A stretch of 64,000 nucleotides of DNA from a virus. Lineage: Duplodnaviria; Caudoviricetes. The translations under genes and the position numbers were made by a program. Under the pieces are notes generated by a model. That model searched no databases, was not told the DNA's origin, and saw nothing but the letters and a program-made list of their open reading frames with translations. Shown one piece after another: positions 18,310-55,498 of the stretch. Where the stretch lies: the IMG/VR virus record IMGVR_UViG_3300014204_000110; one strand, written 5' to 3'. Each line of letters opens with the position of its first letter. Positions within the stretch are counted from its first letter, which is position 1.

Positions 18310-18570
18310 AATGACTTTGAAATTTCATAAGGATTAACCATGTGTCTTTCCTATATGAAACTCTGAAATATTCCAAATTTACTGTCCATGCACAATAATC
18401 AGACATAAATTTGCCTGTTATATTTCATCCATTCATACAGGCTTTTGAATAGACAATCAATGTCATTTCATCTACACACTACTTAACCATCATTAAGTAT
18501 TATTGAATCATGTAGATATAGATGCGATTAAGTACGCAACTAACTATTCAATAATCAGACATAAATATTC

Positions 18571-18771
18571 TTATTGTTGTGAACCTCGACAATAAGCAGA
18601 TATCTCTGAGGGAGACAATCTCGATAATCCAGCAGTCTGGATAAACGAAAGATCCTCTTGAATAGCTTCATTAAGATCTTTAATAGTATCAAGATTTAAT
18701 ATACCTTTATGTGAGTTATATATGAAACTTCCATCCTGTCTGGAATCAATGATGGTCATAATGTTAGGCAT
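18571..18771 (-). CDS. Hypothetical protein
   Basis: AAGGAG RBS. Confidence 0.6.
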   Translation of the reverse strand: MPNIMTIIDSRQDGSFIYNSHKGILNLDTIKDLNEAIQEDLSFIQTAGLSRLSPSEISAYCRGSQQ

Positions 18772-21536: not shown

Positions 21537-22047
21537 ATGAAATATTGTAGTAATTGTAAGTATCTTTCTAAGTATATTCGTGATGAAATTATTGATTATA
21601 GATATATAGATGGAAGTATAGTAGAGTCTGGAAATAAAGTATGTCTATGTGATCCTAAAAGAGAAGATTATAATAATTGGGAATATGAGTGTGTAACTAA
21701 GGTTTTAACTGTTTATGATCCTAGAAAGCTTAATGTTAAGAATGATTGCCAGTGTTATCGAGAGAGATGGATATATAGAATTATAGCGTTTCTTAGAGGA
21801 TGTAAGTATTATCATGTTAATGGTGGATTAAAACATGAACGAGTTAAATAAGTTAGTTATACTTATATTTGCTTTGTATGTGATTGGTGATACTATCAGG
21901 ATAATTGATCATAAGGATCGCTTTGTAATATTAAATGTGTTTAATACAGATACTGATAGTTGTTATGTTATGCTTGGTAATCTAGAGCATAAGTTAATAA
22001 GATATGAGCGTTGTTATAAACTTAGAAAGACTTTAGATAAGTATTGA
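21537..22047 (+). CDS. Two hypothetical proteins (21537-21851 Cys-rich, 21835-22047 N-terminal TM)
   Basis: First ORFs downstream of the promoter. Confidence 0.6.
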
Positions 22048-22127: not shown

Positions 22128-22535
22128 ATGGACACACAACTATGGGACATCTTCGATGTCTTCTTCAAAGATGCACTGGACACTTCCAGTACCTACACAA
22201 CTCTTACGAACAGCAAACTACATTATCCAATTGATGTTAAGGAGACAACCTCTGGAATTCAATTTGATGTAGCTATTGTTGGGGCTGAGAAAAAAGATGT
22301 AATTATCGAAACCGAAAACGATATATTACGAATAATTTATCCTAATAATGAAAATAAAGACAGCACTGAAAAGTATCTTTATAAGGGGATTACACGTAAG
22401 TCTTTCAATTTTAATTGGAAGCTTGGTGGCAAGTTTGACGTCGCTCAGACAGTGGCAGCTATGGATAAGGGATTACTTACGATTAAGATTCCTTACACTA
22501 AGAACGCTACTAAGAAACGTGTTGAAATAGTTTAA
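22128..22535 (+). CDS. Small heat-shock protein (Hsp20/alpha-crystallin family)
   Basis: YPIDVKE, AIVG..K.DV, YLYKGITRKSF, A.MDKGLLTI.IP and C-terminal VEI motif. Confidence 0.9.
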   Translation: MDTQLWDIFDVFFKDALDTSSTYTTLTNSKLHYPIDVKETTSGIQFDVAIVGAEKKDVIIETENDILRIIYPNNENKDSTEKYLYKGITRKSFNFNWKLGGKFDVAQTVAAMDKGLLTIKIPYTKNATKKRVEIV

Positions 22536-22539
22536 ACAT

Positions 22540-22560
22540 TTGGGGAGATATTCTCCCCAA
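22540..22560 (+). terminator. Terminator-like hairpin after Hsp20
   Basis: TTGGGGAGA-TAT-TCTCCCCAA. Confidence 0.6.
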
Positions 22561-22767
22561 TTATATTTATATGGGTAAAATTAAAAAAATAATGTCTGAA
22601 GAATTTAAGAGACGTAATTTTCCAGATAGTATTAATAATTATTTTATAGCAAATTGTCCATATAGTGATCGAGATTGTGATGTATTTTGTAATGAAGATG
22701 AATGTGAAGATTGTTTTCATGAATTTGTAACATTTGATCAACTTCATGTAAGTCTAGGAATTAAATC

Positions 22768-23082
22768 TTGATACATCTAAGAGATCCATATATAGAGAGT
22801 ATTGTAGAACTTAATTCATTTAAATTATTTTATGAAAGTAATTTTATATGTGACTGTAATGCAATTGAAATAACATCAAATACATTAAAAGGATTTTTTA
22901 CTACTAATTTTAATCTTGATATTTATCAAGATAAAACATATACGATTCTTATAAATTATAATAATACAATATATAATTTAAACTATGTTAAACTAACATC
23001 CAGACATCGTTATGTTGATAATTTTAATATACCAATTAGTCTAGATACTAAATACGAGTTTAAGTATGAACATATCTCTTAG
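22768..23082 (+). CDS. LRDxY-tagged protein 1: minimal tail-tube-like protein
   Basis: MIHLRDPY tag; aligns by eye to the spliced tail tube (ICDCNAI/IGNLNGI, GFFTTNFN/GSLIFTNFD, DTKYEFKYEHI/ETQMTFVARGI). Confidence 0.55.
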   Translation: MIHLRDPYIESIVELNSFKLFYESNFICDCNAIEITSNTLKGFFTTNFNLDIYQDKTYTILINYNNTIYNLNYVKLTSRHRYVDNFNIPISLDTKYEFKYEHIS

Positions 23083-23458
23083 AGATCGAGCAGATCCAAT
23101 ATATCCAGAAAATAGTTTTAATAGTATCTGGTATGCAACAAGAATGCTTATAACTAGTGGATCTATGTTTAAGTTAGAATATAATCTTCCTAGACGTTGG
23201 GGTAAGACTCATCTATGTGGAAAACTCATGGAAGAATTTGAAAATGTAATATATATTGCTAGTAATGATAATATGTGTAAATATTTCTGTTCTACATATG
23301 GATATATAACTAGAACTTTTAGTGCTAATTATATACTTGATTGTTTAAGAGGTCGAATAATAAATTATATTTTATTTGATGAAGTATCTTCTGTTCAAGT
23401 AAATAACGTATTATCTTATGTACATCCTAAAGGTTATCTTGCAGTGAGATCATTATGA
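23066..23458 (+). CDS. LRDxY-tagged protein 2: truncated terminase-ATPase-like P-loop domain
   Basis: PRRWGKT Walker A; LRGRIINYILFDE matches TerL LRGLSGDMVFIDE with identical spacing. Confidence 0.65.
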   Translation: MNISLRDRADPIYPENSFNSIWYATRMLITSGSMFKLEYNLPRRWGKTHLCGKLMEEFENVIYIASNDNMCKYFCSTYGYITRTFSANYILDCLRGRIINYILFDEVSSVQVNNVLSYVHPKGYLAVRSL

Positions 23459-23688
23459 TTCACTTAAGAGATCCATACATAAATGATTTTCCTACTCAAA
23501 GTCCGTCTAGTTCAGATTCAAGTAGTTCAAGTAGTTCAGAAAGTTTTAGTATTAGTGATAGTGCAAGTATTTCAATGAGTGCTAGTCCAAGTATAAGTAA
23601 TGAAAGAAATTATGAACATACACCTAAGAGATCGATACTTTCAAGAATATCCAAAAGATTGGTATCGATTATATCTTTTACTAAGTAA
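23455..23688 (+). CDS. LRDxY-tagged protein 3: serine-rich low-complexity protein
   Basis: MIHLRDPY tag, then SPSSSDSSSSSSSESFSISDSASISMSASPSIS. Confidence 0.55.
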   Translation: MIHLRDPYINDFPTQSPSSSDSSSSSSSESFSISDSASISMSASPSISNERNYEHTPKRSILSRISKRLVSIISFTK

Positions 23689-24022
23689 AAATATAAATGA
23701 AGATAGATTTTTTACCATAAATTTATCTAGACATAAACATTTTGAAACCGTTACTTTAGGTTTAAATTTATTAAATGATTTTGAACATCTTTTAATGATT
23801 GTTAAAAACGCTGGTACTGAAATAATGCTTAGAAAAAATAGTAATTTAAATAATATAAATCAATATAATTTATATTCTGGAGTAGAACTTAAAAATTGTG
23901 GATGTGATGTACATCTAAAATTAAAATATAAATATATATTTATGGATAACTTAGATGATGAACTTATAAAATACTATTCTAATCTTGGACTTAGTTATAT
24001 TAGTATAAAGAACAACTTATGA
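23612..24022 (+). CDS. LRDxY-tagged protein 4: degenerate paralogue of protein 2
   Basis: Start reassigned to ATG at 23612 (MNIHLRDRY); INLSRHK... and KYIFMDN at the Walker A/B positions. Confidence 0.5.
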   Translation: MNIHLRDRYFQEYPKDWYRLYLLLSKNINEDRFFTINLSRHKHFETVTLGLNLLNDFEHLLMIVKNAGTEIMLRKNSNLNNINQYNLYSGVELKNCGCDVHLKLKYKYIFMDNLDDELIKYYSNLGLSYISIKNNL

Positions 24023-24228
24023 ACATAAATTTAAGAGATCGATACATTGCTGAGACACTTACAATCAAAGATATTTCTAATATGGTTGAGTGGTTGATGA
24101 AACAACCATCACAAGAATATATAATTCCAGTAGATAGTTATTATGATAAATTAATAGATGATTATTTTAATGAGCGAATTAAAAAATTAAAAACTAGGAA
24201 ACTATATGACAATAAATCTAAGAGATAG
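24019..24228 (+). CDS. LRDxY-tagged protein 5: capsid-protein fragment-like
   Basis: MNINLRDRY; ungapped match to MCP SMTANDVFEMYAYLL...KL. Confidence 0.5.
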   Translation: MNINLRDRYIAETLTIKDISNMVEWLMKQPSQEYIIPVDSYYDKLIDDYFNERIKKLKTRKLYDNKSKR

Positions 24229-24415
24229 ATACGTAGAAGAACCAAAAGTATGGCCAGGTAAATTTGAATATACTGATACATTAGACTTTGATAATCACAT
24301 CATTCAACAATGGGTGCAAAATGCTAGAAGAGCACTATCTGCTGAAGTTAGACGAACTGTATTAGAACAAATACCGCGTTATAATCAAGGTGGAATAATT
24401 GAACCTAAATCTTAA
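24206..24415 (+). CDS. LRDxY-tagged protein 6: capsid spine-helix fragment-like
   Basis: MTINLRDRY; WVQNARRALSAEVRRTVLEQI vs MCP WLRAAGKAMARCKERIGMKLI. Confidence 0.5.
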   Translation: MTINLRDRYVEEPKVWPGKFEYTDTLDFDNHIIQQWVQNARRALSAEVRRTVLEQIPRYNQGGIIEPKS

Positions 24416-24701
24416 AAATAAATATCCAGATATCTTTAATGCTGTCTATGATAGTGTTACTGATTTTACAGACTTACCTGATGAAGTTATCTCTAAGATA
24501 GCTTATCGAGCAGGTACTGTAGCTTGTGAAGCTCACGAGCGAGAACTAACCAAGGAGAAATCAATGTCAGATGATCTTAAAGATCTTGTAACGTCTACAG
24601 ATGTTCCAAGTATTTCAAAACAAGAGATGCGAAAGACTCACGCTAATCAACATCAGCAAGCAAAGAAAATAACAGGAAAAGCTAAGAAAACAAAGAAATA
24701 A
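24399..24701 (+). CDS. Hypothetical protein with degenerate tag (MNLNLKNKY)
   Basis: Overlaps previous ORF; possible internal start at 24563 after GGAG. Confidence 0.5.
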   Translation: MNLNLKNKYPDIFNAVYDSVTDFTDLPDEVISKIAYRAGTVACEAHERELTKEKSMSDDLKDLVTSTDVPSISKQEMRKTHANQHQQAKKITGKAKKTKK

Positions 24702-24702
24702 C

Positions 24703-24731
24703 TTGATATCTTACTACGGTTGTAGTATATT
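24703..24731 (+). promoter_or_regulatory. Sigma70-type promoter for RNR, followed by an inverted repeat
   Basis: TTGATA-N17-TATATT; ATAGACATC...GATGTCTAT immediately downstream. Confidence 0.65.
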
Positions 24732-24757
24732 ATAGACATCACAATTGATGTCTATTT

Positions 24758-26665
24758 TTGTCTTTGAGGGAAAACAAAATGAGTGTTACTTATCCAAATA
24801 TTGCTAGTGAATTTGTTGCTTTACGATCTTATTGTAGATGGTTACCAGATCAAGAAAGAAGAGAAACTTGGGAAGAAGTTGTAAATCGAGTTGTTAATTT
24901 TTTAAAAACAGAAACTCGTCATGCTGATAGAATTCCTAATAAAGTATGGACTTCTATTGAAGAAGGAATGTTAACTTTTAATGTAATGCCAAGTATGAGA
25001 CTTGCAGCTACTGCTGGGCCTGCTGCAAAAAAAGATAATATTTGTCTTTTTAATTGTTCATATTTACCAATTGATAGTATTAAATCATTTAGTGAATTAT
25101 TATATATATTAATGTGTGGTACAGGAGCAGGATTTAGTGTAGAAAAAGAAAACATTGATAAACTTTCTATTATTAAACATCCAAATTCTCAAAGAAGAGA
25201 TGATTATATAATTGAAGATTCTCGTGAAGGTTGGGCTAAAGCTTTTCAGTTTGGTCTTGAAACATGGTTTAATGGAGAAGATGTTCATTTTGATTTTTCA
25301 AAACTCAGACCATATGGTGCTTCATTAAAAACAATGGGTGGAAGATCTAGTGGTCCTGATCCATTAAAAGAACTTCTTGAATTTACAAAAGATATTATTT
25401 TTAACGCAAAAGGAAGAAAGTTAACTTCTTTAGAATGTCATGATATTTGTTGTAAAGTTGCAGAAGTTGTAGTTGTTGGTGGTACACGAAGATCAGCAAT
25501 GATTTCATTCAGTGATCTCGATGATCAATTAATGTGTCATGCAAAAGAATTTCCAATTCCACCACATCGATTTATGGCAAATAATTCTGCTGTATATAAA
25601 GAAAAACCTGATACTATTACTTTTCTTAAAGAATGGAGTTCATTAGCTGAATCTGGAAGTGGAGAAAGAGGAATTATAAATGTTAGTAATCTTGATGCTA
25701 TATGTAAAGATAGAAAATTTACAAAAGATATAAGATTCAATCCTTGCTCAGAGATTCTTCTTAGACCATACGAATGTTGTAACTTATCAGAAGCAGTTAT
25801 TAGAAGTGATGATGATATTGGAGATCTTGTTGAAAAAGTAACTACTGCTACATGGTTAGGTGTTATTCAAGGAACATTTACACATTTTCCTTTTTTAAGA
25901 CCTGAATGGAAAAAGAATTGTGAAGAAGAAAGATTAATTGGTGTAAGTCTTACTGGTCAAATGGATAATCCAGAAATTCTTTCAGAACAAGTGCTTAAAC
26001 AATTAAAAAAAGTAGTAATAAAAGTTGCAAAACATGCTTCTTCTATTCTAGAAGTGAATACACCAAAAGCATATACTTGTGTTAAACCATCTGGAACTGT
26101 TTCACAAGTTGTAGATAGTGCTTCTGGTTGTCATCCTAGATACAGTAAATTTTATATAAGAAGATATAGGATTTCTAGTTCTGATCCATTATTTCATCTT
26201 ATGAGAGATCAAGGAATTTCATATAAACCTGAAGTTGGTCAAACAGAAGATAATGCTACAACAATGGTTGTTGAATTTCCAATTAAAGCACCAGATAAAG
26301 CTATTACAATTAAAGATTGGTCATCATCAGATCAACTTAATTGGTATCTTAAAGTTCAAAAAAATTGGAGTACTCATAATGTTAGCAATACAGTTTACGT
26401 AAAAAAAGATGAATGGTTAAAAATTGGATCTTGGGTTTATGATCATTTTGCTGAAATAGTTGGTGTAAGTTTTCTTCCAATTGAAGATCATAAATATGAA
26501 TTAGCACCATATGAAGAAATTACTGAAGATAAATACAATGAATTATTAAAATCTTTTCCTAAATTAGATTTTTCAGTATTAGGAGAATATGAAAAACTCG
26601 TTGGTGATAAAACTGAAGCAGCTAAACAAATGGCTTGTTCTTCAGGATCTTGCGAAATAACATAA
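24758..26665 (+). CDS. nrdJ: Class II (adenosylcobalamin-dependent) ribonucleotide reductase, monomeric type (likely start ATG at 24779)
   Basis: FNC, GGRSSGP, VVVGGTRRSA, NPCSEI, CNLSE, CVKPSGT and C-terminal CSSGSC; no beta subunit nearby. Confidence 0.92.
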   Translation: MSLRENKMSVTYPNIASEFVALRSYCRWLPDQERRETWEEVVNRVVNFLKTETRHADRIPNKVWTSIEEGMLTFNVMPSMRLAATAGPAAKKDNICLFNCSYLPIDSIKSFSELLYILMCGTGAGFSVEKENIDKLSIIKHPNSQRRDDYIIEDSREGWAKAFQFGLETWFNGEDVHFDFSKLRPYGASLKTMGGRSSGPDPLKELLEFTKDIIFNAKGRKLTSLECHDICCKVAEVVVVGGTRRSAMISFSDLDDQLMCHAKEFPIPPHRFMANNSAVYKEKPDTITFLKEWSSLAESGSGERGIINVSNLDAICKDRKFTKDIRFNPCSEILLRPYECCNLSEAVIRSDDDIGDLVEKVTTATWLGVIQGTFTHFPFLRPEWKKNCEEERLIGVSLTGQMDNPEILSEQVLKQLKKVVIKVAKHASSILEVNTPKAYTCVKPSGTVSQVVDSASGCHPRYSKFYIRRYRISSSDPLFHLMRDQGISYKPEVGQTEDNATTMVVEFPIKAPDKAITIKDWSSSDQLNWYLKVQKNWSTHNVSNTVYVKKDEWLKIGSWVYDHFAEIVGVSFLPIEDHKYELAPYEEITEDKYNELLKSFPKLDFSVLGEYEKLVGDKTEAAKQMACSSGSCEIT

Positions 26666-30908: not shown

Positions 30909-33487
30909 ATGTCAGAAATTAATTTAAGAAACGTTTCTAATCAAACAGAACTTGCTATTCTAGGACAAAATAATCCAGAACTTGCTAGTTTATTACAGGT
31001 ATATCCTCCAGAAATGGCAACTCTTTTAATTAATAATAAAGAAAAACTTGCAAGTATATCTAAACAGATGGAAAATTTTACAACAGTTACTTGTATTAAT
31101 ACAATGATAATGAAGTGTTCTCAAAATTGTGTATATAATAATGTTTGTATTTTCGTTAAGAATGATATACGTCCCGATGGGTTTCCCTGCCCTATCGAGA
31201 AAAAAGTTATATTAGATATGGAATTTGACATCGTAAGAAGTCTTGAAATTGATAAAAGTGATCCTATAGAAATGGAAATGCTTTGGGATTTAATCGATGC
31301 TAAACTTCTAGATATGCGAAGTAGTGGAGCACTTAAAGATGGAAGACTTACTCAGATAGTTGAACAAAAAGTTGGTCAAGCTATAGTAAGTCGTGAAGAA
31401 CTTTCTCCAAATATCGAAGCTAAGATGGAACTTAAAAGACTTAAACATAATATTATTGATAGCTTCGTAGCGACTCGTAGAGCCAAGAAAAAATATGGTA
31501 TGAGTAGTGATCAGAGTACTCTTGAAAAGATGATCAGAGAGGCTGCAATGAATGTTGAAGACCAATTGGAATGACATATATGATTCAGTTAAAAAACGTG
31601 TAAATTATATATCTTCGCGTACAAGAAATGTATTAACTAAAAATCAATTATATAATGTTGGTCAAAGAGAAGTTGGAAGAATTGATCAAAAAGAACTTAG
31701 ACATAATATTAAAAAAAAGTATGATAAAGCAGCGTTAAGAATAAATGAATATGTTTCTACTACTAGTAACAAAACACGTAAACTTCTAGAAGGTAATAAA
31801 GCTGGACGACTTCTTACACAGATTGCAAATAAAAAGTATGGAAAACATATTTTAATAGCAGCTGGAACGCTTTTAGCATCTAGTTTAATTGGAAAGATAA
31901 CACAATATAAATCAGAACCTGTTATACCTAAAAATTATGATCGTGGATATGACATTATGAATGAGACATTAACTGATTTTTCATCTCCAGTTAACTTACT
32001 TAAAGCTACTACAAGATCAAATATTATGCCATATTATAGTAGTGTAAGAAAAGGAACAGTTACTTCAGTCAGGTCTGTTCAAGAAAGAAATTTATCTTTA
32101 TTTTTAAATAAACATGCAATAGGACATACAAGGTATTAAATATGTCATCTATGTATAAACCATCATCAAAACTTGCAAGATCTTCATATATGCAAGGTTT
32201 TAAATCAAGCCCATTAAGTAGACAAACTTATAAAAAAATGAGTGCTAATATAATGCCTAAAGTCTCTAGAGGTAGTGATCCTATAATGGCTCAAAATTCT
32301 CTTGGACGAGTACGATCAGATAAAAAATTTAATATATATCGTGGTGTTAGCAAGTCACTTATAGGTAAGAGTAAGGTTATTCCATCTCCTATAAGAAAAG
32401 GTGGACTTAAAGGTGCTCTTGTTACTGGTGCTGTTTCTATGTTAAATGTTGCAATAATGAAAGGTGCTATGAATCCAGGACGCTTTGAAGTATATGGTCG
32501 TATGATGCAAAATTTAGCAGTAGGTAAAAACATGTTGAATAATACTAGACTAGGATTAGCATCTGGAACCTCTAGAATGAACGATATGGGACACACAATG
32601 GGATTATCTTTAGCTTTATCTAAATCTCGTCATGGACGTTACTAATGTATCAATATGATCCTTATACTGGTGATCAAATACAACCTCAAAGTAATCTTGT
32701 AGGTGAGATTGCTTCATATCCTATTAAACCATCTAGTTATTTTACATTAGCTACATCATATCCAGGAATGTATAGTCCAACTAATGGTGTTAAAATACCT
32801 TTCAGAAAACTTGCTAAAGATATTAAAAAAAGTATAAAAAGTCCTGCCATATATAATAGATATAATCAAAGATTTGGTAAAAATGCACTTAAAACTAAAT
32901 TTGTAGGTCTAGGCTCAAGAGCAATAACTAGTCCATTTTCACTTGGAATGACCGAAAGTGAATGGGTTGGTAAAGATTGGCTTAATAAAAAATCTGTTCA
33001 AAAATATAAAAGAGTTGTAAATAAAAATGATTTTAATGTCGCGCTTGGTGAAGCTAAAAAAGATTATCTTAGACAACCAAATACAAATAAAGCATCATGG
33101 ACTCTATTTAATAGAATCTCTGAAGGATCTAGAATTAAAAACGAAATAGGAACTTATGTTAAAGATGGTTTTGGATTTTCTAGAAAACAAATATTAGCAA
33201 AAGGTGCTCTTGGAGTTGCAAAAGTCGGATCTACTATTGGTCTTGGACTTCTTGCTATTGATCTAGCTTCTATGGTTGCTAAACCATTAGCTCAAGCAGC
33301 TATAGGAACATTAAACAATCTTGCTACTGAATATCAGAACCGATTTATGCCAGAAATGGGCGGACAACTTGCTTTAAGTTATCTATCTCAAGGCGCTTAC
33401 ACCGAGAGACAAAGAGCTATACAAAGTATATCTCGCTCTTCTTTGAATGCGAGGAGTGCGCTAGGTCAAGAAGCCAATTACATGTAA
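30909..33487 (+). CDS. Four late hypothetical proteins (30909-31574 possible terminase small subunit; 31552-32139; 32142-32645; 32645-33487)
   Basis: Coupled ORFs immediately upstream of TerL; TerS assignment is positional only. Confidence 0.55.
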
Positions 33488-33490
33488 ATT

Positions 33491-36400
33491 ATGAATAATT
33501 CAAATATAATAAAAACATTTTCTGATCCACTAATATGGTGTGAGAGTTATTTAAGAGATCCTAGAGATAGGGATAAACCTCTTGTTCTTCGATCATATCA
33601 ACAAAATATTCTTAAAAATACTCGTAAATATAAGAGCATGATAAGTCGATGGGGTCGTCGTTGTGTTGCTGAAGATAGTCCAGTACAATTATATAATGGA
33701 ACTACAATTAAAATACAAGATATTAAAGTTGGTTATAAAGTAGCATCTTGGTCTTTTAATAAACAAAAAGCAGTTCCTGGAAATGTAAGTGAAGTATTTA
33801 ATAATGGTATTCAAGATATATTTGAAGTGTTACTTGAAAATGATTTAATTATAAAATGCACATCCAATCATCCAATTTTAATTTTAAGAAATACTACATA
33901 TTTATATAAACAAATAGATAGAGATTTATCTATAAATGATATGTGTGTAATTTTAAATAAAGATCACACATTTTCTACTTCTAGAATTGTAGATATAACA
34001 TATATTGGTAAAAAACAAACATATGATATAACTGTTGATAATTATAGTAATTTTTCTTGTAATTTTATCATTTGTCATAATAGTGGAAAAAGCGTAACTT
34101 TCTGTGCAGATACATTATGGTGGGCGCAGGCTTATCCACTAGTACGAATGATAGAAACTAAAGCAATAAAACAGAAGTCATTTAGAGTACTTGTCTTTTG
34201 TCCTTATGAATCACAAATTAAAGAACTCTGGAATACTTATACACAATTGATTGGTGATAGTCCATTACTTATGGATCAGTTAGTTAAGATAAGAACTTCT
34301 GATATACATCTTATTGAATTTAAAGGTACTGACGATAGTACTCGTGGAAGCACAATTGAAGGATTCACGATTGGTATTAGTTCATCTAACCAAGGTACAA
34401 GTTTACGCGGATTATGTCTTGGTGAAAACACAAGAATATCTATGATAGATGGTAGTACAAAAAATATTAAAGATTTAAATATAAACGATAAAATAATATC
34501 TTATAATATTAATTCTAAATCATTTGTTGAAGATTCAATTGCTTATATTGCTGATGAAGAAGAAAAAGAATTATTTGAGATAGAATTTCAATCAGGTAGA
34601 AAAATACAATCCTCAAAAGATCATAAATTTCTTACAGATAATGGATGGAAAAAACTTGAAGATATAACATTATTTGATAAAATTAAATCATCTTTTAATT
34701 TTGTAACAAATTCAGTAACAAATCCTCAAGATGAGTATGTCAAAATATGTGCATATTTAATAGGAGATGGATGTATATCAGATAATAGAATTAAAAACAG
34801 TACCATTCCTTTTACTAATACTAATAAAAAATTAATAGATGATTATAAAAATTGTCTAAAAACTTTAGGATTTTATTTTAGTGAACAAAGAAAAAAAGAA
34901 TGGGTAAATAAACAACCAATAGATATAGTTGTTACTGGTTTTAAAAGAAAACAACCAAAATTTTATCAATTTTTAAAAGATTATGAGTTATTAGGTAAAA
35001 TTCATAATACTAAAAGTGTTCCAGATATAATTAAAAAATCATCTACGTTAAAAAAAGCATTATTTTTAAGACATTTATTTTCAACTGACGGCTGGTGTAG
35101 TTTATATATATCTAAACAAAATTATAATCAGTGCGAAATAGGATATTGTTCAACATCCTTCAAATTATGTCAAGATATTCATGATATATTATATCAATTT
35201 GGAATATATAGTAAAATTCAAACTAAATATTATTATGTTAATAATATCAAATTTATTAAATATGAATTAAAAATTAGAAGTAAAACTAATATTAAAACTT
35301 TTTTTCAAAAAATTGGATATATTTTTGGAAAAGAAAATAGTTGTAAAATAGTAGATAATATTGTTAGTGTTGGTGTTCATGCTGATAAAATTAATCCAGA
35401 ATATGAAAAAATAATTTCTATAAAATCTATAGGTTTAAAAAAATGTTATGATATTACTACAAAAAAATACCATAACTTTATAGCAAATGGAGTTATTACT
35501 CATAATTCTGGAGATATGGTTTTTATAGATGAAATGGATTATATTCCATCTGATATTATGGAACAAGTTATATTACCTATTACTACAACACACGTTGATG
35601 TAAGACTTCGAATTTGTTCTACTCCTAGTGGTAAACGTGAGAAATTTTTCCATTTTTGCTCAGATTCAAAACAACTTGGATGGTTTCATACTCATATACA
35701 ATCATGGCATCCAGATAATACTAACTGGAGAAGTATAGAACAAGCAAGAAAACTTGGAATACCAATAGAAGAAAGTACTGAATTTCAAGTAAGACATAGT
35801 ACAACAACTTCTGCTTTTGAACGTGAATATGGTGCTGAGTTTGGTGAAGAATTTGGTGGAGTATATAAACATACACTTATAAATAAATCTATTACTAAAT
35901 ATAATCGTAATATAGATACAAGAGATCTAGATGTATTTGATCCTGGATTTGAACAAAATCCAGAACATAAATATATTGTTGGAGTTGACTGGAATAGTTA
36001 CGTTAATGGTGGTCAGGTTGTAATGGTTGAATACTGTAGTACTCCAACATTGCATACTTTTTATGACGATGATAGACAAGAAGATGTTATTGTTGATTTC
36101 ACTGGCAAATATAGATTATTTTATAGAAGAAGTATAAAGTCTCAAGAATCCACACAACGTATGACTCGTAATGAAGTTATAAGATTAATGACTTATTATA
36201 AAGTTGATTACGTGTATGTTGATTATGGAGCTGGTGATACTAATATCGAAGAATTATCTCTTTATGGAAGAGGTCATCCAGAATTAAAACTTTCTGAAAA
36301 ATTAGTCGTCATAGATAGTGGTGCTGTTGCTGAACATTATGATCATATAATTGGAAAAAAAGTTAAAAAAAGAAATAAGACTTTAATGGTAAACTTTTCA

Positions 36401-36835
36401 GTAATATCTCTTGAAGAAGGAATGTTTTTACTTCCAAAAGAAGAAGATCAAGATACTAGACTTGTTGGTCAGATGAGAAGTTATGTTGTTAAAAATATAA
36501 CAGCTCGTGGAGAATATTCATATGAAGGTGATGATCATATACTTGATGCTTTTAATTTAGCTATATATGGATTTCAACAAAAGTTCGGTCAATTGATGGC
36601 ATCTAGAATTAAGTATGATATAAATATTACTGCTGATCCTAGAATGCAATACTTTCCTAAACGTGCTGGAAATATAACAACACCTATTCCTATTAAGATC
36701 AAAAACTCTTATAGTACACCAATAAGAGATCCTGAAAAACCATTGGCCTATCCTCATAAAAATAATCGATCAGCATTTCCATTGGTTGGTGCTGGACGAT
36801 CATTACATTTTAATACAAGACGTGGATCTTTTTAA
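33491..36835 (+). CDS. terL: Terminase large subunit with two inteins (about 610 aa after splicing)
   Basis: Spliced Walker A WGRR|SGKS, Walker B LRGL|SGDMVFIDE, motif III STPSG, nuclease GVDW...YVD...DDHILDA. Confidence 0.93.
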   Translation: MNNSNIIKTFSDPLIWCESYLRDPRDRDKPLVLRSYQQNILKNTRKYKSMISRWGRRCVAEDSPVQLYNGTTIKIQDIKVGYKVASWSFNKQKAVPGNVSEVFNNGIQDIFEVLLENDLIIKCTSNHPILILRNTTYLYKQIDRDLSINDMCVILNKDHTFSTSRIVDITYIGKKQTYDITVDNYSNFSCNFIICHNSGKSVTFCADTLWWAQAYPLVRMIETKAIKQKSFRVLVFCPYESQIKELWNTYTQLIGDSPLLMDQLVKIRTSDIHLIEFKGTDDSTRGSTIEGFTIGISSSNQGTSLRGLCLGENTRISMIDGSTKNIKDLNINDKIISYNINSKSFVEDSIAYIADEEEKELFEIEFQSGRKIQSSKDHKFLTDNGWKKLEDITLFDKIKSSFNFVTNSVTNPQDEYVKICAYLIGDGCISDNRIKNSTIPFTNTNKKLIDDYKNCLKTLGFYFSEQRKKEWVNKQPIDIVVTGFKRKQPKFYQFLKDYELLGKIHNTKSVPDIIKKSSTLKKALFLRHLFSTDGWCSLYISKQNYNQCEIGYCSTSFKLCQDIHDILYQFGIYSKIQTKYYYVNNIKFIKYELKIRSKTNIKTFFQKIGYIFGKENSCKIVDNIVSVGVHADKINPEYEKIISIKSIGLKKCYDITTKKYHNFIANGVITHNSGDMVFIDEMDYIPSDIMEQVILPITTTHVDVRLRICSTPSGKREKFFHFCSDSKQLGWFHTHIQSWHPDNTNWRSIEQARKLGIPIEESTEFQVRHSTTTSAFEREYGAEFGEEFGGVYKHTLINKSITKYNRNIDTRDLDVFDPGFEQNPEHKYIVGVDWNSYVNGGQVVMVEYCSTPTLHTFYDDDRQEDVIVDFTGKYRLFYRRSIKSQESTQRMTRNEVIRLMTYYKVDYVYVDYGAGDTNIEELSLYGRGHPELKLSEKLVVIDSGAVAEHYDHIIGKKVKKRNKTLMVNFSVISLEEGMFLLPKEEDQDTRLVGQMRSYVVKNITARGEYSYEGDDHILDAFNLAIYGFQQKFGQLMASRIKYDINITADPRMQYFPKRAGNITTPIPIKIKNSYSTPIRDPEKPLAYPHKNNRSAFPLVGAGRSLHFNTRRGSF
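33662..34081 (+). mobile_element. Mini-intein (140 aa) in the TerL Walker A motif
   Basis: Starts CVAEDS, block B TSNHP, ends ICHN followed by Ser. Confidence 0.92.
34415..35506 (+). mobile_element. Intein with LAGLIDADG endonuclease (364 aa) upstream of the TerL Walker B motif
   Basis: Starts CLGENT, has AYLIGDG and LRHLFSTDG blocks, ends ITHN followed by Ser. Confidence 0.93.
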
Positions 36836-39498
36836 TGGATAAAACATATCAAATATCAGAGTTTATAAATAAAAGTTTACCTCCAGAAGTTCTAGAGCAA
36901 CTTAAAATAGTTGATAGAGTTAAACATTTTCTTAAACCAACAACTGTATCTTCAATATCACAAATAGAAGATCAACCAGAAAAACCTACAGATCAAACTC
37001 TTTCAACACAAAGAGAAGTTGAAGATGAGATTGATAAACTTATAGATGATGTAAAGGATTTTGAAGATCTTGTAGAACAACTTGAAGATCTTGCTGATGA
37101 ACATCTTAAAAATATGGCAATACCTTCTGAAAATAATCTTGTATCTGATGCAGTAAATAAACTTGGTGGTAAAGATGGAGTTATAACAAAAGAAATTCTT
37201 GATAAAGCTCAAGCTATAATAGATTATGTTCCAATGATGTCTTTAGGACAAGATCCAGTATTAGCAGCTTTGCTTGGTGATGGAGTTATTGATGGACCAT
37301 ATGTAAGTTGTAATGAAATAACATCAAATATTGGAAGAGAATTAAAATTAAAAGTTAAAGGTATAAATTCTGCAGAAGTAGTTATAAAAGATCAAGCATC
37401 TAAAATGAATGAAACTCATGATGCAAAAATGAAAAATTTTCTTATAGAATTTATATTACAATTATGGTGGAATCAACTTTGGCCTAAATTTGTTGTTGAT
37501 CTTGCTATAATAAATCCAAATAGAATTCTTGCAACTCCTCCAGATAGTGTTGTTTGTTTTTTTAAAAGTATAAAATGGAATGGACAAACATATCCTAGAT
37601 TTAGAAGAAAACCAAAAGATAGTATTACTGGAACATCTAATTCTGGTTATAGTGACGCCAATGGACCAGTTAATAAATTGTTAAATAAATTAAGAATGTT
37701 ATTATTATGTAAGTTACCTAAAAAGTTTTATAAAAACTATAAACCAGATGCTAAATTAAACTGTCCAGAAGATCAATTAAATGATTGCGTTGCTAAAACT
37801 GATAATCCAAAAGATATGTCTGGAAGTAAAGATTTATCTGATCTTGAAAAAATATATAATGATATAGATGAAAATTCTCCATGTTTTGATGTAAATGATT
37901 TAATTGGTAATATGTCTTCAGATCAACCACAAGGATTTGGATGTCCTCCAGAATGTATACAAGCTGCAAAAGTTATATTAGATGCAGTAATGGCTGATGC
38001 ATTAACTCCATTAGAAAGTAATGTATAATGAGTTATATAAGAAAAAATGGATACGTCCAAGGAGCTTTATTATTTCTTCCTCAAATTAAAAAATTAAGAG
38101 AAACTCTTGAATTTGAAAAATTTCAATGTAGAGTTCTTAAGGATGATGAACGAACACAAGAATTTAAAAAGAAAACAGAAGAACTTAAAGATAGTATATA
38201 TGCTTTTAGATATAATAATATAGAGTCTGAAAAAATGACTGAAGCAGGAAAGAAATATGAATCAAAAGGGACCTAATAGTCAAATAGATGTTGATCAATT
38301 TTCTACTGGTATTAAAAATGTATTTAATACTATAGAACATCCATCTATTACAAATATTCTTGGAACTCCTGGACAAGAATTAAGAAAACGTAGTGAATTA
38401 TTATCTCAAATGGTTAATAATTTAAATAAACCAATATTAAAAGCTTTAGCTAATGATATGCTCACTACAATGGTTTCTTGGCTTGATGATCCTCAAGTGT
38501 TATGCTGTCTTATACAAGGAATATGGTCTTCTTATGTTGCTAAAAATGTTAATTTAAGTGCAAGTTCAAAAATTAAATTAGCAGATAGTGATTTTGGAAA
38601 GTTTCTAGATAATCTTATAGCATTTGTTGATTTTATAATTATTTTTATAACTCAGGATATTAGAAGATTAGTTATATTCATTCCTGATCTTATTAAAGAA
38701 ATAATGAACGCAATAATGGGAATGATAATATTACTTATTCAAGAAACTGCTTTTGCTCTTAGAAATTCTGTATTATCAGTTATATTTGAATGGATGGATA
38801 AATGGGATACAGAACGTACTTGGTCAAAATGTCTTCCACTTAAACAAATGATTAATATTTTAAAAAAGTATATAAGTGATTATGGAATTTTAGCAACCAT
38901 ATTTGAAAAGATTAAAGGATATATATCTGGATTAAGTATTAAATCAGAAAAAATAGCGAAAGAACTTGTTCCTAATGTTAAAGATCTAGAATTTTTATAT
39001 TGGTTACGTGATTTATTAATTAAACTTAAACGAGCTTCTTTAAATTTTGATTTATGTATAGACTATGATTTTTTACCAACTTCTGATACAATTAATACAA
39101 ATAATGATGAAAATAATCAAAAATTTGCTAAAAAAACATACATTGATGAAATAAATGATGAAAATAAAGACTTCCAAGGTGATATTAAAAAACAACAAGG
39201 CTATACTATTGGATCAGATGGTACTATTTTTATAGATAAAGATAATACCTTGAATGATAATGGAAATTGGATACCAAGATTATCAAATAGTTTTTTAAGA
39301 GAATTTATTCATAAAGAATATAGTATTCCATATGATGTAATAGACAATACTATTACTCGTGGAACATCAAAAGATAATATTCAAGGAACTTCAATTACGT
39401 CAGATAATTTTATAATTCAAGATAGATGTGCTAATACACCAACATCTCAAGAAACAATTCAATGGATATTAAATTTGAGGAGTAGATTGAATACATGA
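36835..39498 (+). CDS. Three hypothetical proteins between TerL and portal (36835-38028, 38028-38276, 38257-39498)
   Basis: Translationally coupled ORFs. Confidence 0.7.
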
Positions 39499-41570
39499 GC
39501 TGGTTAGATATATTTAAATCAAATTCTAAACAAGAAAAAGAAATTACTACAATAGAAGTTTCTGATTCAGTTATTCTTGCAAATGGTCAAGATAAACGCG
39601 AAGTAGATGATCCAACATCTAAATTTTGTTGTCCATCTCCAGTTAAAAGGTATCAATATACAAGACGTAATGTAAGTTATAAACCATCTGAGTATGATCT
39701 AGAAATGGTCGCTAATGCAGTTAGTCTAGATGGTATTCTTCGTAGAACTGTTAATATATATGTAGAACAGATACTTAAAAATGGTTATGAAATAAATTCT
39801 GAAAACGATAAAATAAGTAAACACGTTGCAAAACGACTTAAAGAAATACAATATTTTACTGGTATTTCATTTTATGAACTTTTAAATCAAATTTCTACTC
39901 AACTTGTTACTTATGGTAACGCATACGTTATTAAAGAACGCGCCAGAGATGTAAGCAAATTTGGAAAAGGTTATAGATTATATAATCGTAGTGTTTATCC
40001 AATTGTAGGATTATTTTGTGCTGATGCTTCTACTATGGAGGTTGGTCTTAATGATGCTGGAACAGTAGTAACTTATAAACAAGAAATTCGTGGAGAAGCA
40101 AATGAATGGGATGAACGAGATGTTATTCATTTTACTTATAATAAAATACCAGGAACACTTACAGGACAAAGTCAGATACTTCCAGTTCTAGATGACGTAA
40201 GAGCACTTCGAAAACTTGAAGAAGAAATAGAAATTTTAGGATTTCAATATTCTATTCCTCTTTATCTTTATAAAGTTGGTACAAAAGAAATACCACCAGC
40301 TCCTGGAGAAGTTGAACTTGTAAGTAGTACAATAGCTAATATGCCTTCTTATGGAATGCTTGTTGTTCCTGGTCATCACGATATTACTATTCCATCTAAT
40401 ACAAATAGCATGGATATCATAAAATATGTTGATCATTTTAAAAGTAGAATATTTGGTGGACTTGGAGTATCTCCTGTAGCACTAGGTCAGAGTGATACTT
40501 CTAATCGTAATACTGCTCAAGTAGCAGATCTAGCAATGCAAAGTATTACTAAATCATATCAACAAATTGAAAAAAATAAAATAGAACTTGAATTATTTCG
40601 TGAACTTATGCTTGATGGTGGATTTGATAGTATTGATGATGAAGTTGAATTTAGATTTCCTGAAATTGATATTGAAACTCAAATTAAAAAAGAAACACAT
40701 ATTATAGCAAAATGGCAGAATAATCTTATTACAAGAACTGAAGCTCGTAATGAAATGGATTATGAAAATAAAGTAAAAGATAGTGATACATTTTTAAATA
40801 CAGTTGATATTCCTAAAATTGAAGCTCAACAAAAAGGTCAAATGGAATTAGCAGAATTAAATAATGCTAATGCAGTTAAACTTGCTAAGTTAAAACCAGC
40901 ACCATCTGCTGGTGGAGAAAAAACTTCTACTCCAGCATTACCTAAACCAAATTCTGGTGGAAAATCAGTTACCAAAGTTACACATACAATTACTGCTCCT
41001 AAGAATCAAAAATCTACAAGTAATAAAGTAGCTCCAGCTAATCAACATGGAAAATCTACAAGACCCAAATATGTTAAAAATTCTAGTGATAATATTTTTG
41101 ATGGATTATCATTATTTAATAACGATAATTTTTCTAAAACACTATCAAAAAATATAACTGATTATTTATATGAAGAACTTGATTATACTATAAATAAGTT
41201 ATGTTCTTTTTATCATAAACCAAAGTTTGAAATTAATACAGATATAACAGATAAGTATTTTTCTGGATTAGACATGATAATATCTAATAGAGTTTCAACT
41301 GCGGTTAAATTTTTAGATGAATATGATAAATTAGATTTATATAATCAGAAGACAAAAGAGTTTGTTGATGATCAAGTATCTAAAGTTCATAATTTGGCTA
41401 AAATTCTAATGTACAAAGAATTTGATATTAACACTATACTAATATCAGCGGATAACTGCGATAAACACGCAGATGTTATTATTAATCTAGATAATTTTGA
41501 TTATAGTAAACTTCCACCATTTGGATATCAATGTAAGTGTGAAATAAGTGAAGAGAATTTAAATGAGTAA
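39495..41570 (+). CDS. Portal protein with a C-terminal MuF-like extension
   Basis: LVTYGNAYV, DVIHF, GQSQILP, IFGGLGVSP..LG, ITRTEAR; ends C..H...LPPFGYQCKC. Confidence 0.85.
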   Translation: MSWLDIFKSNSKQEKEITTIEVSDSVILANGQDKREVDDPTSKFCCPSPVKRYQYTRRNVSYKPSEYDLEMVANAVSLDGILRRTVNIYVEQILKNGYEINSENDKISKHVAKRLKEIQYFTGISFYELLNQISTQLVTYGNAYVIKERARDVSKFGKGYRLYNRSVYPIVGLFCADASTMEVGLNDAGTVVTYKQEIRGEANEWDERDVIHFTYNKIPGTLTGQSQILPVLDDVRALRKLEEEIEILGFQYSIPLYLYKVGTKEIPPAPGEVELVSSTIANMPSYGMLVVPGHHDITIPSNTNSMDIIKYVDHFKSRIFGGLGVSPVALGQSDTSNRNTAQVADLAMQSITKSYQQIEKNKIELELFRELMLDGGFDSIDDEVEFRFPEIDIETQIKKETHIIAKWQNNLITRTEARNEMDYENKVKDSDTFLNTVDIPKIEAQQKGQMELAELNNANAVKLAKLKPAPSAGGEKTSTPALPKPNSGGKSVTKVTHTITAPKNQKSTSNKVAPANQHGKSTRPKYVKNSSDNIFDGLSLFNNDNFSKTLSKNITDYLYEELDYTINKLCSFYHKPKFEINTDITDKYFSGLDMIISNRVSTAVKFLDEYDKLDLYNQKTKEFVDDQVSKVHNLAKILMYKEFDINTILISADNCDKHADVIINLDNFDYSKLPPFGYQCKCEISEENLNE

Positions 41571-44253: not shown

Positions 44254-45585
44254 ATGCCTTTCATGACAATTAGAGATCAAGTCGCAGCTGAATTTTTCCC
44301 AAAGAAAGAAGATAGAGTTAAATATACTAATGTATATGACGCTTTTACTTCTCGCGGACGGTTAATGGATTCTGACGGCAATATTAATAAATATGAACTA
44401 AAAGATTTAGTAACAAGAGAAGATCTTATGCGGTTTATGCCTCAAACGGTAGAAACTGTTGTACGAGAAGCTATTGAACCTAATCTTTTTATAATCGATC
44501 GACTCTTTCAGAGTATTACTATCGAACAGGGTAGTCGTATACAGATTGGTGCTATTGGTGCCATGACTGCTGGACGAGTTGGACAGGCTGGAGAATATCC
44601 AGAAAAAATGTTAGACCTTGATGGTGGAGACATGATTGCTATCACTACTGATAAGTATGGTATCAAAATTTCTCTTACTGAAGAGGTTGTTTCTCAGAAT
44701 CAGTTTGATGTCGTAAACGTTTGGCTTCGTGCTGCTGGTAAAGCAATGGCTCGTTGTAAAGAACGTATCGGTATGAAACTTATAAATGAGATGGGATATA
44801 AGGTATTTGATAATGCATCACCTTCTGCTTCATATTGTGGTAGTACAACTGGTCGAAATATCGCTGGCGTTACTAATGGAAGTATGACTGCTAATGATGT
44901 ATTTGAAATGTATGCTTATCTTCTAAATCGTGGATTTACTCCAGATACTCTTCTACTTCATCCTCTTGCTTGGAAGCTTTTTGCAACTGATACAGAGATG
45001 AGAGAAGTAGTTCTTGCTGGTTCTACGATTGCTCAGGTACAGGGTGGAAAACCAGTATCACAATGGGGTGGAACATCTCATAATGGTTATGGTCTTCGTA
45101 CAACTGGTACTGGTAATGAGAATCTTGCGGGTAGCGTTCCTAAAGGACCAAATGCTTGGACTCAGACATTGAATCCTCTTGGTGCAACATGGAATGTACG
45201 ACCTGCATATCTTCCTTCTCCAATACAAGTAATTGTAACTCCAATGGTTCCTTTCTCATATGGAACTGCTGGAATTGAACGTATGGATACTGGAAGTACT
45301 TGTAACGTCATTATGGTTGATAGTAGTAACTGTGCAGTAATTGGTCAGAGCGAAGCAATTCGTACTGATCGTTGGACTGATCCTGAACGGGATATAGTCA
45401 ATATTAAACTACGTGAAGCTTATGGTATGGCTGTTCTTGAACAGGGTAAAGGTATTGCTAAAGCAAGTAATATAGCTATTGCTAAAAATTACAACTTTGA
45501 GAATTACAATTCTCAGACTTTATCAAACTTTGATCCTACTACAGCTCCTAGTGGTTTCTCAGCTGCAAGTCCTAATCTACCGTAA
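44254..45585 (+). CDS. Major capsid protein (HK97 fold)
   Basis: VGQAGEYPE, KYGIKISLTEE, PDTLLLHPLAW, IKLREAYG; followed by a terminator. Confidence 0.88.
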   Translation: MPFMTIRDQVAAEFFPKKEDRVKYTNVYDAFTSRGRLMDSDGNINKYELKDLVTREDLMRFMPQTVETVVREAIEPNLFIIDRLFQSITIEQGSRIQIGAIGAMTAGRVGQAGEYPEKMLDLDGGDMIAITTDKYGIKISLTEEVVSQNQFDVVNVWLRAAGKAMARCKERIGMKLINEMGYKVFDNASPSASYCGSTTGRNIAGVTNGSMTANDVFEMYAYLLNRGFTPDTLLLHPLAWKLFATDTEMREVVLAGSTIAQVQGGKPVSQWGGTSHNGYGLRTTGTGNENLAGSVPKGPNAWTQTLNPLGATWNVRPAYLPSPIQVIVTPMVPFSYGTAGIERMDTGSTCNVIMVDSSNCAVIGQSEAIRTDRWTDPERDIVNIKLREAYGMAVLEQGKGIAKASNIAIAKNYNFENYNSQTLSNFDPTTAPSGFSAASPNLP

Positions 45586-51908: not shown

Positions 51909-51994
51909 AATAGTTAGGAGTCATGACCTAACTTATAAGGGTAGAGGTAGTTTAACCTATTGCCTCTACCCAAACTTTAAAAATAGGAAAAATA

Positions 51995-52474
51995 ATGAGT
52001 TCAAAAACTTGTAAAACATGTAATATTGAAAAAGATGAATCGGAATATTATAAATATAAAAATACATATTGTCGAAGAGATCATTCGTATAAAGAATGTA
52101 AAAAATGTTATAATCTTAGAGTTAAAAAATATTGTGAAAATAATAAAGAAAAAAAAAGAAAATCCAGTAAAATATGGTGGGAAAATAATAAAACTAGTAG
52201 AAATATAATACGTAAAGAACAACGTTTAAAACGAAATTATGATTTATCTTTAATTGATAGAGAAAATATTTTAAAAGAACAAGATTATAAATGTAAAAGT
52301 TGTAATACTGATTTAAAAAATTTAATATCTTATCATATACATATTGATCATGATCATACTACAAATGTTATTCGTGGAATATTATGTAGAGGATGTAATA
52401 TTGCTTTAGGTTTATTAAATGATGACCCAGATAAAATATTAAAATTATATAATTATTTAAAACCCTTTAAATAA
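51995..52474 (+). CDS. Free-standing endonuclease VII-type HNH (putative homing endonuclease)
   Basis: CKTC...CKKC N-terminus; CKSC...HIDHDH...RGILCRGCN..LG...D. Confidence 0.88.
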   Translation: MSSKTCKTCNIEKDESEYYKYKNTYCRRDHSYKECKKCYNLRVKKYCENNKEKKRKSSKIWWENNKTSRNIIRKEQRLKRNYDLSLIDRENILKEQDYKCKSCNTDLKNLISYHIHIDHDHTTNVIRGILCRGCNIALGLLNDDPDKILKLYNYLKPFK

Positions 52475-52508
52475 TATCAAAATCTTCCAAGTAGATAACT
52501 TGGAAGTA

Positions 52509-52540
52509 AGAAAGGGGGTTAAAATCCCCTTTCTAGTTTT
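52509..52540 (+). terminator. Hairpin between the HNH gene and the tube gene
   Basis: AGAAAGGGG...CCCCTTTCT followed by AGTTTT. Confidence 0.55.
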
Positions 52541-52559
52541 AACAATAAGGAGGTAATTT

Positions 52560-54463: not shown

Positions 54464-55498
54464 ATGGCAACGTTTTTCGATAAAATTAAAAATAATATAT
54501 TTACTCAAGTAGAGGAAAATGTCTCTGCTAATAGTCAGCCATATTTGGGTGGATCGCTTGGTCCAGCAGAAGTTAATCCATTTGCTGAAGATCCAGTAGT
54601 AGATTTTTCTAAGAGTAATACATCATATAGTGGTAGTGATTGTACTGTTATGGTACAATTGAATAATAAACTTATTGTCTTAGGTAATCTAGAGACATTC
54701 TCACATTCTACGCATCGACGAAAAGCACCAGTAGACGTAATTGGACGATCTCACGCAAAAGGTTTTGTTAGTGGAAGTCGTGTTGTAGCAGGAAGTATGA
54801 TATTTATTGTATTTGATAGATCTCCATTGTATGATGTTGTTAAAGAAATTAATTACGTTAGAAATGCTTCTGATAGACGTACATCACCATTACCTGATCA
54901 ACTTCCACCATTAGATTTAATATTACTATTTCATAATGAATATGGACATAGAAGTTTAACTAGAGTCTATGGGGTAGAATTTGTTGATGAGGGTCAGGTT
55001 CATAGTATTAATGATCTTTATACGGAATGTACAATGAGTTACATTGCTCGTGATATTGATCAGATGATTGCTTATGATGAACTTAGTGATTTTAAAAATA
55101 TGTTATTTGAACGTCAGGTTCGAGGACAATTTGTAGATAATAAATTTACTGGATTACTTGAATATAAAGCAAGAGTTGAAAGAGAACTTTCTGATTGTGA
55201 AAAAGTAATTTCTGGTATTGATATGGAAACAGATAGACGTGCTGTTGCTGGAGTTTTTACATTAAGTGCTTCATATTGGTTATCTAGACTATCTTATGGA
55301 AAAGATTATGTAACACGCGAAGAACTTAATAAAGAAAAAACAAAACAACTTAAAATAAAAGAATATCTACTTACTGAACTTGAAAAGATTAATCAACAAG
55401 TTAGAATTTATGAACAGAACGTTAATGTTGGTTTTAATGCTCAACACACTGATGCTGGTAATGTACAATTTGATTACTTATCTCATGCGAGTAAATAA
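54464..55498 (+). CDS. Tail tube paralogue (tube initiator/baseplate-proximal) with coiled-coil extension
   Basis: SYSGSD...RKAP...GSMIF.VFDR...DQLPP...NEYG...GVEF..EG...YIARD. Confidence 0.75.
   Translation: MATFFDKIKNNIFTQVEENVSANSQPYLGGSLGPAEVNPFAEDPVVDFSKSNTSYSGSDCTVMVQLNNKLIVLGNLETFSHSTHRRKAPVDVIGRSHAKGFVSGSRVVAGSMIFIVFDRSPLYDVVKEINYVRNASDRRTSPLPDQLPPLDLILLFHNEYGHRSLTRVYGVEFVDEGQVHSINDLYTECTMSYIARDIDQMIAYDELSDFKNMLFERQVRGQFVDNKFTGLLEYKARVERELSDCEKVISGIDMETDRRAVAGVFTLSASYWLSRLSYGKDYVTREELNKEKTKQLKIKEYLLTELEKINQQVRIYEQNVNVGFNAQHTDAGNVQFDYLSHASK

Follow-up and report, generated by a model that had tools for sequence, protein, structure and literature searches.

A stretch of 64,000 nucleotides (64 kb) of DNA from an uncultured tailed phage (IMG/VR record IMGVR_UViG_3300014204_000110; hereafter the window) carries an array of seven consecutive plus-strand open reading frames (ORFs) between positions 22,768 and 24,701. 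Each of them overlaps its predecessor and they start at 22768, 23066, 23455, 23612, 24019, 24206 and 24399; we refer to them as A to G. Their products begin, in that order, with MIHLRDPY, MNISLRDRA, MIHLRDPY, MNIHLRDRY, MNINLRDRY, MTINLRDRY and MNLNLKNKY. An earlier note on this DNA had described the array as a series of tagged decoys, and the shared N-terminal tag that it reported on these neighboring ORFs is real and non-random. When the 64-kb window is translated in all six frames, the pattern LRD[RP][YA] appears six times, in each case at the start of an array ORF, and the seventh ORF (G) carries a degenerate copy. A 15-nt core of the tag gave five matches against 0.73 expected from shuffled sequence, and a repeat search recovered the tags as families of direct repeats. 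Conservation starts at the start codon and the DNA 5' of the tags is not conserved. It should be noted that A and G initiate with TTG.

Gene A (22768..23082, plus strand, 104 aa) joins the tag MIHLRDPY to a predicted all-beta barrel, and gene B (23066..23458, plus strand, 130 aa) joins MNISLRDRA to a minimal RecA-like P-loop domain with the Walker A motif PRRWGKT and the Walker B motif ILFDE. ORF C (23455..23688, plus strand, 77 aa) consists of the same octapeptide as A followed by a Ser-rich low-complexity tail. Since the ENA gene caller passed over it, it shares 77 nt with D and it is missing from a related contig in which B abuts D, C is a doubtful or young gene. Gene D (23612..24022, plus strand, 136 aa, or 140 aa from 23600; tag MNIHLRDRY) aligns collinearly with B, with GKT of Walker A replaced by ETV and DE of Walker B by DN, and is a degenerate paralogue of B that has lost both Walker motifs. 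No relatives were found for gene E (24019..24228, plus strand, 69 aa; MNINLRDRY) or gene F (24206..24415, plus strand, 69 aa; MTINLRDRY). Gene G (24399..24701, plus strand, 100 aa) has a TTG start, the degenerate tag MNLNLKNKY and a Lys-rich C-terminal part of 45 aa, which may be made on its own, as suggested by an internal ATG at 24564 behind a strong AAGGAG and by the G orthologue of a related genome (42% identity; L003:9365-9799), where an in-frame stop splits the gene into ORFs of 81 and 49 aa without the LRD tag.

The bodies behind the tags are mutually unrelated with the exception of B and D, so that a leader of about ten residues stands at the extreme N-terminus of otherwise dissimilar proteins. 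The earlier note had matched five of them to the phage's own virion and packaging proteins, namely A to the tail tube, B and D to the ATPase of the large terminase (TerL), and E and F to two segments of the major capsid protein (MCP). All five of these matches fail. BLASTP of the tag-stripped cargoes against all window ORFs found nothing beyond the similarity of B and D, and Smith-Waterman comparison with the tags removed gave z ≤ 1.3 for A against the ORFs of the tube region, for B and D against TerL and for E and F against MCP. Profile comparison with hhalign gave a probability of 0.07% for A against the tube paralogues of the phage and of at most 0.15% for E and F against MCP.

At the level of predicted folds the picture is mixed. 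The AlphaFold2 (AF2) model of A (predicted local distance difference test score (pLDDT) 76.6, predicted template modeling score (pTM) 0.69) is an all-beta barrel whose nearest structures are the tail tubes, contractile injection system (CIS) tubes and Hcp, with VIA Z of 8.7-9.2 over 93-95 of the 104 residues at 3.0-3.5 Å and an Atlas TM of 0.66 to clusters of Phage_T4_gp19. Tube matches dominate three libraries; PilZ barrels follow close behind at Z 8.4, the stated background of the aligner is Z 7-8, and all Foldseek E-values are 0.0025 or weaker. An exhaustive profile search with A among 1.84 billion representatives returned only A itself, one orthologue (described below) and one repeat protein, leaving a family of two members with no sequence link to tubes. 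A tail-tube/Hcp-like fold is therefore plausible for A but is not established. Residues 2-5 of the tag form an extra strand in the model, outside the part that aligns to known folds (residues 10-104). For B, PRRWGKT and ILFDE are invariant in three homologues, the secondary structure alternates between beta and alpha, and the best family matches are to Pfam AAA_14 (E 4e-4, below the cut-off) and phrog_2 (E 0.007). The AF2 model of B is poor (pLDDT 45); its ESM Atlas model (pLDDT 0.80) is nearest to domain 1 of SF2 helicases (TM 0.65-0.72), and its language-model neighbors include many small viral proteins of 130-150 aa. We take B to be a predicted minimal RecA-like P-loop NTPase domain, its resemblance to TerL being that of a generic Walker A/B P-loop. 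The match seen in the earlier note probably arose from the context of the TerL Walker A motif (RWGRR/SGKS, split by an intein). Of the folds which that note anticipated, a tube-like one is plausible for A, with PilZ close by; B pointed to SF2 helicases rather than TerL.

Two relatives were informative for the history of the locus, a 10.9-kb JGI contig (L095) and a 219-kb IMG/VR genome that is 95% complete (G001). In L095 an Hsp20 gene is followed by orthologues of A (46% identity, starting MNLRDRY), B (52%; P0002, starting MNICLRERY) and D (40%, starting MVNLRDRY), all of which are tagged. These orthologues, 40-52% identical overall, keep LR[DE]RY, and identity falls to 17-45% over the next 12 residues. 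The identical octapeptides of A and C differ by four synonymous changes; the Leu codons of the tags include CTA, CTT and TTA, and across the copies in the three genomes Arg is encoded by AGA, CGA, CGT and CGG. Because of these synonymous differences, the varied Arg codons and the retention of the tag in such divergent orthologues, the evidence points mainly to selection on the tag peptide. We also considered the tag as a substitute for a ribosome-binding site or as a Shine-Dalgarno (SD) sequence for a downstream start; it is not such a device, since many tagged genes already possess a strong SD and the tag is not followed by an in-frame start.

G001 is close to the window in its core genes (87% identity in class II ribonucleotide reductase (RNR), 82% in MCP) and lacks both Hsp20 and A-F. 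In the same place, 5' of its G orthologue and RNR, it has other genes, which start MSILLRDRPY (103 aa) and MGILLRDK (194 aa, with beta-helix-like repeats), and a 59-aa gene elsewhere in the genome starts MGIILRDPPDPIEPEE. G is the sole array member conserved in G001. A homologue in G001 was found for only 37 of the 94 window genes, which places the array locus in a hyperplastic region. Across the window, L095 and G001, the leader is thus kept at a hypervariable locus. The array appears to have grown partly by tandem duplication and divergence, as in B and D, and probably also by gain and loss of cassettes at the repeated tag.

The tag is not confined to the array. A looser motif, M-x(0-3)-[NHSLIC]LR[DEN] at the N-terminus, is found in 6/94 crude window genes and 7/274 genes of G001, compared with 1/1388 genes in 79 unrelated RNR-bearing phage loci (1.04 Mb in total). 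In the window, a further tagged gene lies outside the array at 30909..31574 on the plus strand; its 221-aa product starts MSEINLRN and that of its G001 orthologue (65% identity) starts MNLRDL. The carriers in G001 include a vWA protein, a Cas4-like PD-(D/E)XK nuclease and an OsmC-like protein, the last recognized by a weak sub-threshold match. Among homologues of the vWA protein, all of the 20 closest and 27 of the 30 closest start with MNLR followed by a polar or charged residue, from 100% down to about 42% identity and on many contigs from many samples, and more distant homologues have N-termini without MNLR. Additional tagged genes occur in two contigs of the clade (L102, 213 kb; L103, 57 kb). 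These comparisons show the array tag to be a stricter form of an N-terminal motif that runs through the clade, M-x(0-3)-NLR-[DN]. With vWA, OsmC-like and Cas4-like proteins carrying it across the clade, it is not a label specific to baits.

Beyond the clade, a scan of IMG/VR with the DNA pattern of the tag gave no matches, and a metagenome scan for MNIxLRD[RS]Y gave five loci, by estimate about the level of chance, none of them related. One of the five encodes an HNH endonuclease of a widespread type (L101:732-1055) with ..NILLRDRYTCQYCG, in which the tag residues are followed by a zinc-binding CxxC. An origin of the tags as remnants of HNH genes of this type was rejected, as the motif NILLRDRYTCQYCG is encoded neither in the window nor in G001, and the likeness is probably a coincidence. 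Apparent C-terminal NLRR "tags" in G001 were likewise set aside, since three of seven are the next gene's TAAGGAGA or TTAGGAGA read in frame, a nucleotide effect and not a peptide tag. At 54514-54738, 67117-67338 and 18407-18610 of that genome, the endings ...INLRRR* and ...NLRRNND* are the next gene's SD (TAAGGAGA) in frame and mimic a C-terminal tag.

Judged by analogy, the closest documented precedent for the tag is the capsid-targeting sequence (CTS) of phage T4. This is a 10-residue N-terminal leader, and the first 10 residues of the internal protein IPIII suffice for incorporation into the head; apart from the leader, the internal proteins are poorly conserved and unrelated to each other, and in related phages CTS-like leaders head other proteins (PMC9026906, PMC3012670). 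The T4 carriers (IPI, IPII, IPIII and Alt) resemble the array members in having leaders of about ten residues on unrelated, mostly small proteins, and in being encoded by tandem genes in a poorly conserved myovirus locus where the leader is kept and the bodies are swapped (PMC9026906, PMC3012670). A possible further likeness is a hydrophobic-x-Glu pattern after the tag in four array members, as at the cleavage site of T4 gp21 (L/I-x-E): A, D, E and F have [IVF]-x-E at residues 10-14, whereas B, C, G and the copies in G001 lack it or have it elsewhere. However, the array tag does not resemble the T4 leader in sequence, an S77 protease of the T4 type was not detected in G001, and the array motif also heads vWA and Cas4-like proteins and is spread over a whole clade.

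Other systems offer looser parallels. Encapsulins, whose shell has the HK97 fold, use cargo-loading peptides, and bacterial microcompartments use encapsulation peptides; in both, a short peptide at the end of otherwise unrelated cargo proteins docks them inside the protein shell. These peptides are usually C-terminal or amphipathic helices, whereas the array tag is N-terminal. An N-terminal leader cleaved by the protease Prp is common to ribosomal protein L27 and to capsid and scaffold proteins of Staphylococcus phage 80alpha; like the array tag it is a short leader with an (L/I)-N-L core on unrelated proteins, and such leaders are removed by one protease, but the F-F-A cleavage motif that defines them is absent from the tag. 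Blockers of the DSAD1 type are, like the array products, small phage accessory proteins, and one array member (A) is tube-like in its predicted fold; they differ in that the array cargoes have no similarity to the sensed proteins of the phage and that no common tag is known from the decoys described so far. PicA-dependent import into the chimallivirus phage nucleus is a case in which some jumbo-phage proteins are selectively directed to a single site (PMC11087766). Neither chimallin nor another phage-nucleus marker turned up here, and no search was aimed at one. To our knowledge, no linear N-terminal signal has been described for the PicA pathway. N-terminal address-like leaders on unrelated phage proteins are already known, and the lineage tag described here is a variant of them.

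We favor the reading that the tag is an address or docking peptide with a common reader, on a hypervariable locus of accessory genes, and put its probability at roughly 45%. It is favored because a short motif is kept on unrelated proteins, across 40-60% divergence, and outside the folded domain. The peptide M-x(0-3)-[NHS]-L-R-D-[RP]-Y would lie outside the folded cargo, would be capable of forming a beta-strand and would bring unrelated proteins to one common partner. The tag, its conservation at the peptide level, its spread through the clade and the unrelated nature of its cargoes are directly seen, and from them we infer the existence and possible identity of a receptor. The likeliest specific version, although at long odds in itself, is a capsid-targeting, propeptide-like signal as in the T4 internal proteins. 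The tagged proteins would then be packed into the prohead and be delivered together with the DNA, possibly after being trimmed behind the [IVF]-x-E that comes next to the tag in A, D, E and F. Weak hints in favor of this capsid version are the [IVF]-x-E pattern and the N-terminus of MCP itself (MPFMTIRDQVAAE, 44254-44295), which bears a loose likeness to the tag with the x-x-E behind it and ranks 17th of 368 N-termini against the tag profile, the MCP of G001 ranking 25th; this scoring was post hoc, and the rank corresponds to roughly the top 2% once training members are removed.

Several observations weigh against a docking peptide or against its capsid version. The window tags share the rare codons AAC (13% of Asn), CGA (15% of Arg) and TAC (11% of Tyr), and in L095 the second Arg is encoded by AGA in each of the three copies. 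Such sharing of codons within a genome suggests gene conversion between tags or an additional constraint at the DNA or RNA level. The tag is also only modestly better conserved than the bodies (55-60% against 41-53% identity), and in the OsmC-like protein the motif may simply be the first beta-strand. With regard to the capsid, neither an S77 (PF03420, T4 gp21) nor an S78 (PF04586, HK97-type) prohead protease was matched in G001 at E ≤ 1. A 499-aa gene between portal and MCP had no family or PDB match; a divergent prohead protease may be encoded there, in a protein that matches nothing solved. Additionally, the array adjoins Hsp20, RNR and dUTPase rather than the head module, and carriers such as the vWA protein, the weakly matched OsmC-like protein and the Cas4-like nuclease are untypical of head proteins. 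Two candidate partners were rejected. Hsp20 as a general receptor is attractive in that the tag fits I-x-I/L and the gene is adjacent in two relatives, but G001 has tags without Hsp20. The sliding clamp of the phage as a hub found no DnaN or gp45 family match in G001.

A broader formulation of the docking peptide is more tentative. In this formulation, an uncultured clade of groundwater and freshwater jumbo phages would possess an undescribed sorting code, M-x(0-3)-NLR-D (here LRDRY), with a dedicated receptor that directs a few percent of the proteome to one destination, and we regard this as a possibility that is on balance doubtful. The destination would be the capsid interior, for co-injection, or another phage-built assembly, and the cassette locus, including its tube-fold and mini P-loop proteins, would be part of the sorted set. 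If the tag is truly an address label, it provides a sequence handle for listing everything that the clade sorts to one place. That list might consist of the proteins that are carried in the capsid and enter the cell along with the DNA, as the anti-restriction proteins of T4 do; the capsid-targeting principle of T4 would be extended from three or four proteins to a lineage-wide code, and the tag would be testable as a portable loading signal.

Alternatively, the tag may have no reader at all. It could be a relic of common ancestry that gene conversion, or recombination at the 27-nt repeats, has homogenized; the repeats would act as junctions of DNA cassettes, comparable to the promoter-stem-loop cassettes known from T4-type genomes, perhaps with generic constraints on first codons in addition. 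We consider this unlikely, although a good deal of the locus fits it: B and D are true paralogues, the rare codons common to the window copies and the uniform AGA of L095 suggest homogenization within each genome, the repeats of D and E have 84% identity along 38 nt, a stretch that reaches about 8 nt upstream of the ATG, and ORF C resembles an insertion or deletion bounded by tags when compared with L095. A relic is harder to reconcile with identical peptides that carry several synonymous differences, with Arg codons that switch between AGA and CGN, and with a motif that persists on unrelated families and, in many samples, on the 20 nearest vWA homologues, which range down to 42% identity. Mismatched repeats of 27 nt are moreover poor substrates for recombination, and conservation begins at the ATG rather than in intergenic DNA. 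If the tag is only a recombination scar, the locus shows short repeats at gene starts driving cassette turnover in hyperplastic phage regions.

It is rather improbable that the tag is instead a recognition site for an enzyme, either a degron by which turnover would be timed, for example by an AAA+ unfoldase or protease, or a substrate motif of a protease or modifying enzyme. The tag is indeed a short, exposed N-terminal peptide with Arg and Asp, and G001 encodes a 603-aa AAA+ ATPase (51171-52982; Pfam AAA E 2e-21) that ends KLNLRTDDVNI, a tag-like C-terminal copy which is not SD-derived, since the SD of the next gene lies after the stop. However, none of the three relatives has a protease or modifying enzyme linked to the array. 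Finally, the decoy array proposed in the earlier note, in which cargoes that mimic tube, TerL and capsid would blind sensors of the Avs, DSR2 and CapRel types and the tag would route the sensors to a partner or protease, keeps its shared tag on unrelated small proteins and a tube-like fold for A, and the PRRWGKT of B with its weak phrog_2 match recalls RWGRR/SGKS of TerL, but as a mechanism it is highly improbable, given that no cargo resembles the tube, TerL or MCP of this phage in sequence or profile, that PilZ is almost equal to the tube for A, that B is nearest to SF2 helicases and D is without both Walker motifs, and that the tag is also found on vWA, OsmC-like and nuclease proteins.

The array lies near the start of a long rightward gene block, between Hsp20 and the genes for RNR and dUTPase. 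The Hsp20 gene (22128..22535, plus strand; Pfam HSP20 E 4e-12, phrog_432) is directly 5' of the array region, and between the two is a terminator-like hairpin on the plus strand (22540..22560) with a 9-bp stem, five GC pairs and a following T-run. An untagged, Cys-rich ORF of 66 aa comes next (22571..22771, plus strand), whose stop overlaps the TTG start of A (TTGA) and which is absent in L095. Together with an ORF of 104 aa at 21537-21851, which is also small and Cys-rich, it flanks Hsp20; both have several CxxC-like pairs and neither has a family match. At the other end, a promoter-like site and a hairpin (24703..24755, plus strand) close the array ahead of the class II RNR gene (24779-26665, 628 aa). 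The earlier note had placed the array downstream of sigma70-type promoters, which could not be established, as promoter-like sites in the window are fewer than in shuffled sequence (43 observed against 55) and the strong terminator-like hairpin at 22540-22560 intervenes.

The window belongs to the AT-rich genome (27-34% GC) of an uncultured jumbo myovirus and includes the portal gene (39495-41570), an HK97-type MCP (44254-45585), a tail sheath (49155-51908) and an intein-bearing TerL of 1114 aa (33491-36835). No close relative of the phage was found among 50,697 GenBank phage records, and the nearest protein from an isolate is only 31% identical, the clade being uncultured. The sequencing runs that hold the stretch are landfill and groundwater metagenomes, and gene B is present letter for letter in a 229-kb ENA metagenome contig and in Logan contigs. 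The vWA protein of that 229-kb contig (P0015) carries the NCBI name of a "Candidatus Omnitrophica bacterium" metagenome-assembled genome; the phage contig was thus assigned, correctly or by mis-binning, to an Omnitrophota genome, which offers a possible lead to the host. TerL of the window contains Hint/intein and LAGLIDADG domains and its Walker A motif is apparently split by the intein (RWGRR / C...HN / SGKS); its orthologue in G001 has 612 aa. Conversely, the class II RNR of G001 (L003:9866-12685) has 939 aa compared with 628 aa in the window, the extra segment being intein-like in appearance and inserted after residue ~94, so that the two phages would have inteins in different genes.

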